Assembly (NCBI GenBank): GCA_035395685.1 | Contig: DAOPBR010000007.1 | Coordinates: forward strand, 918-64,917 | DNA: 64,000 nucleotides | From: Spirochaetota bacterium | GTDB taxonomy: Bacteria; Spirochaetota; UBA4802; JAFGJZ01 | Direction of reading: 5' to 3' | Part shown: positions 7,798 to 12,998 of the stretch, one piece after another | Numbering within the stretch: position 1 is the stretch's first letter | Layout: the number at the start of each line of letters is the position of its first letter | Made by a program: the position numbers and the translations under genes | Notes under the pieces: generated by a model | Databases searched by the model: none | What the model was told of the DNA's origin: nothing | What the model saw: the letters and a program-made list of their open reading frames with translations, nothing else

Positions 7798-8070
7798 ATG
7801 GAGAAGAGAATCGGTTCAGTCGCGATAGTCGTGACTGACAATATCAACATTTCACGCCTCAATTCCGTTTTATCCGAACATGCCGATATAATAATCGGAC
7901 GCATGGGAATTCCGCGCAGGGAAAAATCTCTACACATAATTTCACTAATCGTTGAAGGCGATACTGATCAGATAGGCTCACTGACAGGAAAAATCGGAAG
8001 ACTCCCCGGAATAGAAGTGAAATCCGTTTTAACGAAATACAAAGAGGATGAAAATGACACAATCAGCTGA
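7798..8070 (+). CDS. TM1266-like small ACT/NikR-C-like protein (putative [FeFe]-hydrogenase system regulator)
   Basis: About 90 aa, immediately upstream of and overlapping hydG. The sequence pattern IVV…HADIIIGRMGIPRREK…LIVEGDTDQIGSLTGKIGRLPGIEVKS resembles the TM1266 family. Confidence 0.55.
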   Translation: MEKRIGSVAIVVTDNINISRLNSVLSEHADIIIGRMGIPRREKSLHIISLIVEGDTDQIGSLTGKIGRLPGIEVKSVLTKYKEDENDTIS

Positions 8071-9439
8071 AAAAAATTTTATCGACAGGGAAAAACTTTA
8101 CGCCCTTTCGGAAGTAAAATATACAGATTCAGAAATCGACTCTATTTTAAACAAGGCTCTAAAACTCAAGGGAATTTCAGTCGAAGAAGCAGGCAAGCTT
8201 ATCAATGTAACTGACAGCAGCAACATGACTAAAATCATGAGCGCCGCCGGCAAAGTCAAGGAACTCATCTATGGAAGACGACTCGTTCTCTTCGCTCCTC
8301 TTTATGTAGGAAACAAATGTTCAAACAACTGTCTTTACTGTGCATTCAGAAAAGATAATAAAGATATCAAGCGGATTGTTCTTTCTGAAAGTGAAATAAT
8401 AAAAGAAACTGAACTTCTTCTGAAGGAAGGACACAAACGCGTTCTTCTAATCGGAGGTGAAGCCGGAGAAACCCGGCCTGGCTATTACATCGATGCCATG
8501 CGTGCGATTTATTCCGCAAAATATGACAAACATACCGTACGCCGCGTTAATGTTGAAATCGCACCGATGGAAGTCGCTGAATTCGAAAAATTTGCAAAAG
8601 AAAAGATCGGAACTTATATCTGCTTCCAGGAAACATATGATGAAGTCGTTTACAAGGAAGTTCATCCTTCAGGCAAAAAGAAAGATTTCAACTGGCGTCT
8701 TTACGTCATGGACCGCGCGCTTCAGGGCGGGCTTAACGATGTTGGAATCGGTGCACTATTCGGTCTCGCGGATTACCGTTTTGAAACCCTTGCCCTTCTC
8801 ACTCATGCGAATCATCTCGATGAAACATTCGGAGTCGGCCCTCATACCGTAAGCGTTCCGAGAATAGAACCTGCAACAAATGCTCCTCTCTCTTATCAGG
8901 TTCCTCATCCTGTAAGTGATGAAAATTTCAAGAAAATTGTAGCTGTCATACGGCTCGCGCTTCCTTATACGGGAATCATTTTAAGCACACGTGAAAACGA
9001 AACTATCCGCAAGGATCTATTTCATTACGGTATCAGTCAGATAAGTGCCGGAAGCAGGACTAACCCTGGCGGTTATTCCGACAACAGTTCGGAAGCACAG
9101 TTCTCTCTCGGAGATCACCGCTCGCTTGATGAAGTCATTTCATCATTAATCGATGACGGTTACATTCCTTCATTCTGCACGGGATGCTACAGAAAAGGAC
9201 GCGTCGGAAAAGATTTTATGGATATCGCAAAACCGGGACTCATCCACAAATTCTGTATGCCGAACGGTCTTTTTACTTTCAAGGAATATCTTGAGGATTT
9301 TGCTTCAGAAGAGACTAAAACAAAAGGAGAAAAACTTTTAACTAAACTCATCTACGAAATTGAAGATGCCAAGGTAAAGGCGAAATCCGAATCAGTCATA
9401 TCACAAATATCAAACGGCGAGAGGGATATTTATCTTTGA
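8048..9439 (+). CDS. hydG: [FeFe]-hydrogenase maturase HydG (radical SAM tyrosine lyase)
   Basis: CSNNCLYC radical-SAM motif plus a C-terminal Cys cluster (FCTGCYRKGR). 463 aa. Confidence 0.9.
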   Translation: MKMTQSAEKNFIDREKLYALSEVKYTDSEIDSILNKALKLKGISVEEAGKLINVTDSSNMTKIMSAAGKVKELIYGRRLVLFAPLYVGNKCSNNCLYCAFRKDNKDIKRIVLSESEIIKETELLLKEGHKRVLLIGGEAGETRPGYYIDAMRAIYSAKYDKHTVRRVNVEIAPMEVAEFEKFAKEKIGTYICFQETYDEVVYKEVHPSGKKKDFNWRLYVMDRALQGGLNDVGIGALFGLADYRFETLALLTHANHLDETFGVGPHTVSVPRIEPATNAPLSYQVPHPVSDENFKKIVAVIRLALPYTGIILSTRENETIRKDLFHYGISQISAGSRTNPGGYSDNSSEAQFSLGDHRSLDEVISSLIDDGYIPSFCTGCYRKGRVGKDFMDIAKPGLIHKFCMPNGLFTFKEYLEDFASEETKTKGEKLLTKLIYEIEDAKVKAKSESVISQISNGERDIYL

Positions 9440-10443
9440 TTAACAATGATAAAAATTACAGAAAACTTTTTCTGGAAGATAAAGAGAGTCTGATAAAAGA
9501 AGCGGATAACATCTGCCGCAGTATTCACGGTAACCGCGTGTATGTGCGGGGACTTATTGAGTTCTCAAATCACTGCTCGATGAACTGTGATTATTGCGGA
9601 ATACGCCGCGGTAATTCAAATGTTCACCGTTACCGGATGCTGCCCGAAGAGATTATTGAAACTGCCGTGAACGCTTTCAAGCGCGGAATAAAGACATTTG
9701 TCCTTCAGGGCGGAGAAGACTCTTCTTTTAACGATGATGTTCTCTGCAAGATAATCAGCTCTATCAAAAATCAGACCAGCGGTGAAGCGGCTCTCACTCT
9801 TTCAGTCGGAATCAGACCGCGAGAAAGCTATAAGAAACTCAAAGATGCCGGAGCCGATAGATACCTGATACGCTTTGAAACCTCCGACGAAATCATATAC
9901 GCAAATCTTAAGTCAGGTCAGAAACTCGAAACAAGACTTAACGCGATCCGCACTATAAAAGAACTAGGCTATGAAACAGGTTCGGGATTCATGGTAAACC
10001 TTCCCGGCGAAACGGATGAAACAGTAATCAGAAACTGCGAGCTCTGCCGCGAGCTCGCTCTTGATATGGTTGGAATCGGCCCGTTCATTCCGCATCCTGA
10101 AACTCCTCTTGCACAGGCTGATAAAAAAGGAATCGAGACTGCGGTAAAAGCAGTGGCACTGACGCGCATTCTTCTGCCATACGCGCATATTCCGGCAACA
10201 ACGGCAGCAGCTACAATCGAACCTATGGGACGCGAAATGATGTTTTCAGCGGGCGCAAATGTCGTGATGCCGAACATAACTCCTGAAAAATATAAAAAGG
10301 ATTATCTTTTATATCCTGACAAGATATGCCTTGATGAAGATTACATCAAATGCCTAGGGTGTCTTTCTGGACGTGCTGAATATGCCGGAAAAACAATCGA
10401 CATGTCAATTGCAAGCGCATTGACTAAAACGGATAATCATTGA
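9436..10443 (+). CDS. hydE: [FeFe]-hydrogenase maturase HydE (radical SAM, BioB-like)
   Basis: CSMNCDYC motif, 335 aa. Start overlaps the hydG stop. Confidence 0.9.
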   Translation: MINNDKNYRKLFLEDKESLIKEADNICRSIHGNRVYVRGLIEFSNHCSMNCDYCGIRRGNSNVHRYRMLPEEIIETAVNAFKRGIKTFVLQGGEDSSFNDDVLCKIISSIKNQTSGEAALTLSVGIRPRESYKKLKDAGADRYLIRFETSDEIIYANLKSGQKLETRLNAIRTIKELGYETGSGFMVNLPGETDETVIRNCELCRELALDMVGIGPFIPHPETPLAQADKKGIETAVKAVALTRILLPYAHIPATTAAATIEPMGREMMFSAGANVVMPNITPEKYKKDYLLYPDKICLDEDYIKCLGCLSGRAEYAGKTIDMSIASALTKTDNH

Positions 10444-11777: not shown

Positions 11778-11780
11778 TAA

Positions 11781-12998
11781 ATGAACACACCTTCATCGGA
11801 ACTTGTAAAAATTGTCATCGCCGGAATTGTGAATGCCGGAAAATCATCGCTCATAAACAGCATCTTTGAACGCGAAATTTCAATCGTAGCCCCGGTTGAA
11901 GGAACTACAACAGACGCCGTAACAAAACGCATAGAGCTCGCCGAAGCTGGCCCAGTAACAATAGTGGATACTGCAGGTCTTGATGATAAAACCGAGTTAG
12001 GATCTCTCCGCATAAAGAAAACACTTCATGAAATCGAAACTGGCGACATCATCATACTCGCGACTCCTCTGAATAAAGCCCCTACAACAACTGAAGATGA
12101 AATTTTATTAAATGCCGAAAGACAAAACAAACAAGTAATAATATGCGCAACATTCTCTGACTTAACTCATAATGAATCAAAAATAAAATGGCTTTCCGGA
12201 AAAAATCACATTAAAACAGATAATAAAGATAATTCTACAGCAGCCGGGATTAGAAAGAAACTAATCACTGCCGCCCAGAAAGCGGAAAAAGAAATAACAC
12301 CGCTCGAAGGAATTGTCCGTGAAAATGACCATATACTTCTTGCCGTTCCGCTGGATCTAGCAGCTCCTAAAGGCAGACTCATTCTTCCTCAGGTTGAAAC
12401 TATTCGCGATGCGCTTGACAGGGACTGTACAGTCAGCATCGCAAAAGACCGCGAACTCAGACAGATGTACGAGAATCTTGTCAACAAACCCGATCTCGTA
12501 ATAACTGACAGCCAGACTTTCAGCAAAACTGCGGCAGATATTGATGCAAATCAAAAACTGACTTCATTTTCAATTCTATTTGCAAGAAAAAAAGGAGATC
12601 TTTCTCAATACCTGAAAGGCTTAGCAGCAATAACAAAAATTCAACCCAACTCAAAAGTAATGATCGTTGAATCATGTTCGCATCATAAACAACCGGATGA
12701 TATCGGCACGGTGAAAATTCCCCGGCTTTTCAGACAAATGATACAGTCCGACACCGAATTCATATTTACTCACGGACTTAAGGAATCTGATGATTACACG
12801 GGGATTACGGCTGCAATAATCTGCGGAGGATGCATGCAGACAAGAAGACAGATGCTTTCGCATCTCAGACGTCTTGAAGAAAATAACATACCAGTTACAA
12901 ACTACGGCATTTTTCTTGCATATGTAAACGGACTTCTTCCGAGAGCAATCGAAGTTTTTTCTGATGAATACGAACTATATATGGAAACTATGAAATAA
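11781..12998 (+). CDS. hydF: [FeFe]-hydrogenase maturation GTPase HydF
   Basis: GIVNAGKSSLINS P-loop. C-terminal CxH…HxxC-type ligand region (ESCSHHKQ … CGGC). Confidence 0.9.
   Translation: MNTPSSELVKIVIAGIVNAGKSSLINSIFEREISIVAPVEGTTTDAVTKRIELAEAGPVTIVDTAGLDDKTELGSLRIKKTLHEIETGDIIILATPLNKAPTTTEDEILLNAERQNKQVIICATFSDLTHNESKIKWLSGKNHIKTDNKDNSTAAGIRKKLITAAQKAEKEITPLEGIVRENDHILLAVPLDLAAPKGRLILPQVETIRDALDRDCTVSIAKDRELRQMYENLVNKPDLVITDSQTFSKTAADIDANQKLTSFSILFARKKGDLSQYLKGLAAITKIQPNSKVMIVESCSHHKQPDDIGTVKIPRLFRQMIQSDTEFIFTHGLKESDDYTGITAAIICGGCMQTRRQMLSHLRRLEENNIPVTNYGIFLAYVNGLLPRAIEVFSDEYELYMETMK

Follow-up and report, generated by a model that had tools for sequence, protein, structure and literature searches.

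A hyd-linked aspartase-like lyase encoded upstream of hydF in a probable [FeFe]-hydrogenase maturation operon of an uncultured Spirochaetota bacterium

Five open reading frames (ORFs) packed on the forward strand of contig DAOPBR010000007.1, from an uncultured Spirochaetota bacterium, probably constitute an operon that matures the H-cluster belonging to [FeFe]-hydrogenase, in which a lyase of the aspartase type would serve the nitrogen supply of the dithiomethylamine (DTMA) ligand. The genes lie at positions 7798-12998 of the 64-kb stretch analysed here (64,000 nucleotides, hereafter the window), in the order TM1266-like, hydG, hydE, aspartase-like lyase and hydF. Judging by its sequence and by analogy with published work, the product of the fourth gene is likely to be a dedicated aspartate ammonia-lyase that releases ammonium beside HydF for DTMA synthesis; this reading is preferred because the catalytic apparatus is intact, the lyase-hydF pairing is conserved and experiments with Escherichia coli AspA have been published. 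Where this ligand obtains its bridgehead nitrogen was long in question, and the AspA part of the current nitrogen model rests on experiments with the housekeeping AspA of E. coli. To this, the present analysis makes a modest addition, namely that the lyases encoded beside hydF appear to form a clade of their own, distinct from housekeeping AspA, and that in one lineage, the cultured Spirochaeta thermophila included, they carry a conserved His/Gln-to-Glu change together with a derived catalytic loop. These hyd-linked lyases are the natural enzymes to try in a defined maturation system. In other respects the locus brings nothing biologically new: the operon is an ordinary one for hyd maturation, its accessory gene is of a known and widespread hydF-linked group, and only the unusually diverged lineage is mildly new. 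The five genes are:

7798-8070, + strand: TM1266-family small protein of 90 amino acids (aa), putative regulator of the Fe-only hydrogenase system (TIGR03959, PF21699)
8048-9439, + strand: hydG, radical S-adenosylmethionine (SAM) tyrosine lyase making the Fe(CO)2(CN) synthon, 463 aa (TIGR03955)
9436-10443, + strand: hydE, radical-SAM maturase, 335 aa, TTG start (TIGR03956)
10440-11777, + strand: hyd-linked aspartase-like lyase, 445 aa (from TTG 10440) or 444 aa (from ATG 10443) (PF00206)
11781-12998, + strand: hydF, GTPase scaffold for completion of the DTMA bridge and of the 2Fe subcluster, 405 aa (TIGR03918)

The identities and the order of these genes had been read in an earlier note from the bare sequence, and they are borne out, since four of the products clear curated cut-offs and the lyase matches Pfam Lyase_1 (PF00206) at 182 bits. 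The TM1266-like protein reaches 99.9 bits with TIGR03959 (cut-off 60.8) and 96.9 bits with PF21699, matches the structure of T. maritima TM1266 (PDB 2nzc) at E=6e-12 and is encoded by the first gene of the hyd cluster, behind a GGAGG ribosome-binding site located 7 nucleotides (nt) upstream, so that both score and position place it in this family. HydG, with 492.9 bits (cut-off 312), contains a CX3CX2C motif at residue 91 (CSNNCLYC) and, at residue 377, the C-terminal CX2CX22C (CTGC...C) of the auxiliary cluster, while HydE scores 346.7 bits (cut-off 254.6), with its CX3CX2C (CSMNCDYC) at residue 47. HydF, at 444.5 bits (cut-off 325.6), comprises the MMR_HSR1 (PF01926), HydF_dimer and HydF_tetramer (PF18128, PF18133) domains, a P-loop (GIVNAGKS), a CxH motif (CSH) at residue 299 and CGGC at residue 348. 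Family model and cofactor motifs are thus found together in all three maturases. As a detail of HydF, its cluster motif (residues 347-351, about 12819-12833) reads ICGGC, with an Ile where a His often precedes the Cys pair; the form commonly cited for this motif is HCxxC.

Regarding the junctions, the earlier note described all of them as overlapping, which is correct for three out of four. As read from the sequence, the TM1266-like gene and hydG overlap by 23 nt, hydG and hydE by 4 nt (TTGA), and hydE and the lyase gene by 4 nt if the latter starts at TTG 10440 or by 1 nt (TGATG) if it starts at ATG 10443. The second start is the more likely one, because database homologues that are 98% identical have 444 aa. 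The lyase gene ends in a double stop (TAA-TAA) and the ATG of hydF lies 3 nt past its stop codon, without any overlap. From this tight packing, with three overlaps followed by a single 3-nt gap, we infer that the five genes are co-transcribed and translationally coupled. On the 3' side, the TAA of hydF (12996-12998) abuts the stop of a convergent kinase gene with zero intergenic bases, and no terminator-like hairpin was seen between the two stops; neither did a consensus scan give any terminator-like site on the + strand within 7798-12998. Apart from this last result the scan is uninformative, given that its hits did not exceed those in shuffled sequence (promoter-like, 26 vs 22.4; terminator-like, 11 vs 8.8). 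On the 5' side, reading the sequence alone gives a weak candidate promoter inside the 112-nt gap between nadA and the TM1266-like gene, which the scan did not list, its second hexamer having no A at position 2. No riboswitch or leader was found 5' of the operon, the Rfam scan of the whole window at gathering thresholds having returned one tRNA only (16869-16941). The two elements bordering the operon are:

7701-7729, + strand: candidate sigma-70-type promoter, TTGACA, 17 nt, TTTAAT
12999-15089, - strand: PAS/HisKA_2 histidine-kinase gene, convergent to hydF

The lyase is the only product of the cluster that passes no curated family cut-off, since it stays below every aspA and fumC threshold of NCBIfam (for instance, 202.4 bits against 876 for NF011092, and 217.9 bits against 664.75 for the fumC model TIGR00979). 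In general terms, the loop pattern of the aspartase/fumarase superfamily is G-S-x-x-M-x-x-K-x-N, and the GSTIMAAKTN of the window lyase fits it. Together with the Lyase_1 match and the three-domain helical fold predicted for it, this makes the protein a member of that superfamily. Its best PDB match is AspB of Bacillus sp. YM55-1 (1j3u, 187 bits), and the identity over aligned columns is 32% with AspB, 27% with E. coli AspA and 27% with E. coli FumC. The AlphaFold2 (AF2) model is confident (predicted local distance difference test, pLDDT, 90.3) and complete, the C-terminal domain included, and superimposes on AspB (3r6q) with a template-modelling score (TM) of 0.92 and on FumC structures with 0.89-0.92. 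With AspB (1j3u, 3r6v) and E. coli AspA it has in common the fold (TM 0.92), the catalytic Ser of the SS loop, the carboxylate pockets and the motifs GGAGTS and QSTND, but it differs from them by that low identity (27-32%), by an N-terminus about 20 residues shorter than that of AspB, by its scores under the aspA cut-offs and by the dedication of its gene to a hyd operon. With FumC it shares the superfamily, the fold and the loop pattern, although it has neither the TGSGTQ and QSSND that take the place of GGAGTS and QSTND in fumarases nor a His at the position equivalent to 188 of AspB.

The active site was mapped in AspB numbering, with the roles of the AspB residues taken from PMC11744663, and compared with 120 close homologues (45-98% identity, 437-543 aa). 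The catalytic base Ser318, the α-carboxylate pocket (Thr187, Met321, Lys324 and Asn326) the β-carboxylate binders (Thr101, Ser140 and Thr141) and Asn142 are kept in the window lyase and in all 120 homologues. In the numbering of the window lyase itself, the key residues are Ser296 (catalytic), Thr297, Lys302, Asn304 and Glu169. The loop runs from G295 to P305 and reads GSTIMAAKTNP within a class-I fold (TM 0.92 to AspB), just as it had been reported in the earlier note; AspB and E. coli FumC have GSSIMPGKVNP instead, and E. coli AspA has GSSIMPAKVNP, from which the window loop differs at three positions, the catalytic serine not being among them. With respect to AspB, Pro322, Gly323 and Val325 are replaced by Ala, Ala and Thr, and Ser319 by Thr297, which is a Thr in 104/120 of the homologues as well. 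The substitution that goes beyond the loop, and which is more distinctive than it, was absent from the earlier note: His188 of AspB (Gln in E. coli AspA), which contacts the amine and the α-carboxylate of the substrate (PMC11744663), corresponds to Glu169. The window lyase therefore has neither the His or Gln at 188 nor the Ser at 319 expected of an AspA. Taken as a whole, the alignment suggests an active site that is derived yet catalytically complete. The claim that the loop points to altered chemistry is not supported by these sequences, because the catalytic Ser and both carboxylate pockets are intact and only the His188-to-Glu and Ser319-to-Thr changes set the site apart; moreover, with its GSSIMPAKVNP, E. 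coli AspA shows that a bona fide aspartase may carry the Gly-to-Ala change.

The relationship of the lyase to AspA, FumC and its hyd-linked homologues, whose phylogeny had been proposed as a check, was addressed on 80 loci that a scan of representative genomes returned and that were then searched with the Hyd proteins of the window. The tree is a neighbour-joining (NJ) one with 100 bootstraps, rooted on E. coli FumC. In it, the canonical AspA clade is made up of E. coli AspA, AspB and the lyases of four loci that are not hyd-linked (L065, L066, L075 and L076), and the window lyase falls outside this clade in 88 of the 100 bootstraps; with this position and its 27-32% identity to AspA and AspB, it is not a housekeeping AspA. 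It belongs to a spirochaete-type subclade that was recovered in 100/100 bootstraps, on a long branch. The synteny agrees with this separation: hydF follows the lyase gene directly, on the same strand, in 11 of the 14 spirochaete-type loci and in 40 of the 54 other non-canonical loci with enough downstream sequence (51/68 testable non-canonical loci in total), but in none of the four canonical AspA loci. The junctions between both genes are very tight in these relatives and often overlap, and the window lyase conforms to this arrangement, as it adjoins hydF upstream, on the same strand, with the 3-nt gap mentioned above. The other non-canonical loci come from Bacteroidota, Planctomycetota, Atribacterota, Bacillota, Pseudomonadota and other phyla, and outside the spirochaete-type subclade the hyd-linked lyases are 42-45% identical to AspA and 30-35% identical to the window lyase. 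All this places the window lyase among AspA relatives whose clade spans several phyla, is distinct from housekeeping AspA and has its genes, as a rule, directly upstream of hydF.

Within this clade, the derived loop does not behave as a general trait, which can be ruled out from the 43 of 62 hyd-linked loci that have the canonical Ser-Ser...Pro-Gly form. Since the hyd-linked lyases of other phyla mostly keep GSSIMPGKVNP, the derived loop would be a trait of the lineage rather than a property of the hyd-linked function, and GSTIMAAKTNP typifies, as far as sequences tell, only the long-branch, mostly spirochaete and fast-evolving subclade. Likewise, the Glu at position 188 was considered as a marker of hyd linkage and discarded, because it is enriched (35 linked loci vs 4 unlinked) but not diagnostic, with Gln in 27 linked loci. 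The marks of the spirochaete-type lyases are that Glu, the loop GST-IM-[AP]-A-K-T-NP, the shortened N-terminus and the long branch, and the subclade also conserves Thr297, Ala301 and an invariant RDRWR motif. An example from a cultured organism is that of S. thermophila DSM 6192 (CP001698.1, L083; Lyase_1 gene at 10001-11353), with an identical gene order (TM1266-like, radical SAM with BATS domain or HydG, radical SAM or HydE, Lyase_1 and HydF) and a lyase that is 50% identical to that of the window, including identical GSTIMAAKTNP and GRTELQ, although the genes flanking the cluster differ from those of the window. Two other spirochaete-type loci, L002 (5448-11245) and L003 (466-5149), have TM1266, hydG, hydE and the lyase gene, while hydF is missing from the roughly 9.9 kb downstream; in L002, gaps of about 0.9-1 kb at the hydG/hydE and hydE/lyase junctions may hold extra genes.

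An aspartase gene inside a hyd cluster had already been noted in 2012 for Pelobacter carbinolicus (PMC3543383) and in 2016 for Sulfurospirillum cavolei and D. vulgaris (PMC4794192). More recently, according to Pagnier et al. (2024, J Biol Chem; PMC11736057), genes of the aspA family are strongly associated with hydF, the nitrogen of DTMA becomes labelled when E. coli AspA and 15N-aspartate are supplied to a defined, lysate-free maturation system, and ammonia-lyases are proposed to feed ammonium to a route based on the glycine-cleavage H-protein. The supply of nitrogen by ammonia-lyases is now within the standard maturation scheme of the field (PMC12501116). The nitrogen-donor role that the earlier note presented as an open possibility is thus an already published hypothesis, which the 2024 report backs with in vitro isotope evidence. 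The resemblance of the window to the clusters described there is close, both in the presence of an aspartase-family gene inside a hydE/hydG/hydF cluster, adjoining hydF, and in the proposed use of aspartate-derived ammonium for the bridgehead nitrogen of DTMA via the H-protein; the differences seen here are that the hyd-linked lyases form a distinct clade and that the window copy sits in a further-diverged subclade of it. In the sections of that report that were searched, no separation of the hyd-linked genes from canonical AspA is apparent.

Following that scheme, the lyase of the window would deaminate L-aspartate to ammonium, with fumarate as by-product. The ammonium, released next to HydF, would then be loaded through the glycine-cleavage T-protein and H-protein to give aminomethyl-lipoyl-H-protein, and HydF would use the latter to build the CH2-NH-CH2 bridge of the DTMA ligand. 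Several observations weigh against this proposal. In the 64-kb window, hydA, gcvH, gcvT and glyA are all absent: Pfam scans of its 55 ORFs of at least 110 aa found no Fe_hyd_lg_C or H-cluster domain and no gcvH, gcvT or glyA, and in a six-frame scan of the window none of the frames contained more than one of the three H-cluster motifs, which agrees with the earlier statement that no hydrogenase structural gene lies in it (HydA-type motifs occur within 10 kb in 16 of the 80 related loci, and in none of the spirochaete-type ones). The aspartase models themselves fall short of their cut-offs, with 226.9 bits against 681.2 for the aspA model TIGR00839 and 306.7 against 510 for the aspartase subfamily model NF008909. 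The amine-contacting His188 is replaced by Glu not only in the window lyase but in 118 of the 120 close homologues, and the subclade has a long branch besides; some change of substrate or of kinetics is conceivable. Lastly, the published experiment used the housekeeping AspA of E. coli, only 27% identical to the window lyase, and searches of the literature turned up no hyd-linked lyase that had been assayed.

Some of these observations are in line with a rival reading, a spirochaete-type lyase of changed chemistry or partner that would not be a free-standing aspartase. The substrate of such an enzyme might be an N-substituted aspartate or some other amino-dicarboxylate, or the enzyme might work in the direction of amination or might pass ammonia directly to HydF or the T-protein within a complex. 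Put differently, the spirochaete-type lyases would have diverged functionally, either towards another amine-bearing dicarboxylate or into a dedicated fourth maturase delivering nitrogen directly to HydF or the H-protein, and if that were true, the supply of DTMA nitrogen would not be a simple bulk release of ammonium. The long branch of the subclade, with 27-32% identity to AspA and AspB and 30-35% to the other hyd-linked lyases, speaks in its favour, as do the prevalence of Glu at position 188, the subclade-specific conservation of Thr297, Ala301 and RDRWR, the scores below all curated aspA and fumC models, the very tight and often overlapping lyase-hydF adjacency and the fact that the literature searches found no assay of any hyd-linked lyase. 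Nonetheless, the invariant catalytic Ser and the two invariant carboxylate pockets argue for a substrate shaped like aspartate or fumarate, the Ser319-to-Thr change retains the hydroxyl, and E. coli AspA already has an Ala at the Gly position of the loop and a Gln at 188. In addition, the same operon position is occupied in other phyla by lyases with the canonical loop and either Glu or Gln at 188, which points to one shared function across the loop variants, and none of the 120 homologues (437-543 aa) is a lyase-HydF fusion. A functional divergence of this kind is therefore regarded as unlikely, although it is the less improbable of the departures from a dedicated aspartase.

Far less probable is that the gene encodes a class II fumarase, a hydratase like FumC, or that it is a housekeeping aspA which chance has put beside the hyd genes. 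It is true that the score with the fumC model TIGR00979 (218 bits) is close to that with the aspA model (227 bits) and that FumC structures are nearly as similar in fold (TM 0.89-0.92), but the protein has GGAGTS and not TGSGTQ, QSTND and not QSSND, and no His188, and it is located on the AspA side of a tree in which E. coli FumC is the outgroup; a chance neighbourhood, in turn, is ruled out by the synteny in 51 of 68 loci from multiple phyla and by the position outside the canonical AspA clade in 88/100 bootstraps. Very improbable too is a catalytically decayed paralogue with a structural or regulatory role in a complex of maturases. The long branch, the N-terminus about 20 residues shorter than that of AspB and the failure to reach any equivalog cut-off could be seen as signs of decay, but a full catalytic apparatus that is strictly kept in 120 of 120 homologues ranging from 45 to 98% identity would be unexpected for a pseudoenzyme, and the predicted fold is confident and complete up to its C-terminal domain. 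A dedicated aspartate ammonia-lyase acting beside HydF thus remains the preferred reading.

As for the surroundings of the operon, it is immediately preceded by cysK, mnmA, a gene for an Rrf2-family regulator and nadA (4270-7685, + strand), and a small Nitro_FeMo-Co protein (NifX/NafY-like) is encoded further upstream (1213-1557, - strand), the theme of this region being Fe-S and sulfur metabolism. The possibility that cysK-mnmA-Rrf2-nadA were part of a conserved hyd unit was ruled out, as the closest metagenome-assembled genome (L001) is the only one to share cysK, Rrf2 and nadA with the window, which the remaining 79 loci do not; the link from aspartate to NadA is therefore coincidental.

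Elsewhere in the window, within positions 48416-53064 (+ strand), a 909-aa protein (49241-51970) joins an Amt-family ammonium transporter to the histidine-kinase modules Hpt and HATPase_c. A stand-alone receiver domain and a CheX phosphatase are encoded before it and a PAS-adenylate/guanylate cyclase after it, and the whole looks like an ammonium-sensing signalling cassette. Sulfur chemistry is represented by an 812-aa fusion (33161-35599, + strand) of a pyridine-nucleotide-disulfide oxidoreductase similar to CoA-disulfide reductases with Rhodanese, TusA and DsrE-like domains, which is of the multi-domain sulfur-carrier/persulfide reductase type. Another radical-SAM protein, of 709 aa (37422-39551), is encoded within 36929-42391 (- strand), where its neighbours are a protein with a CxxCxxCC domain on one side and, on the other, one of 947 aa that has PD40/WD40-like repeats, and a gene for a ParE-family toxin is found at 58805-59152 (- strand). 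Finally, a protein similar to Borrelia P83/100 (23181-24929, - strand) supports the spirochaete origin of the window.

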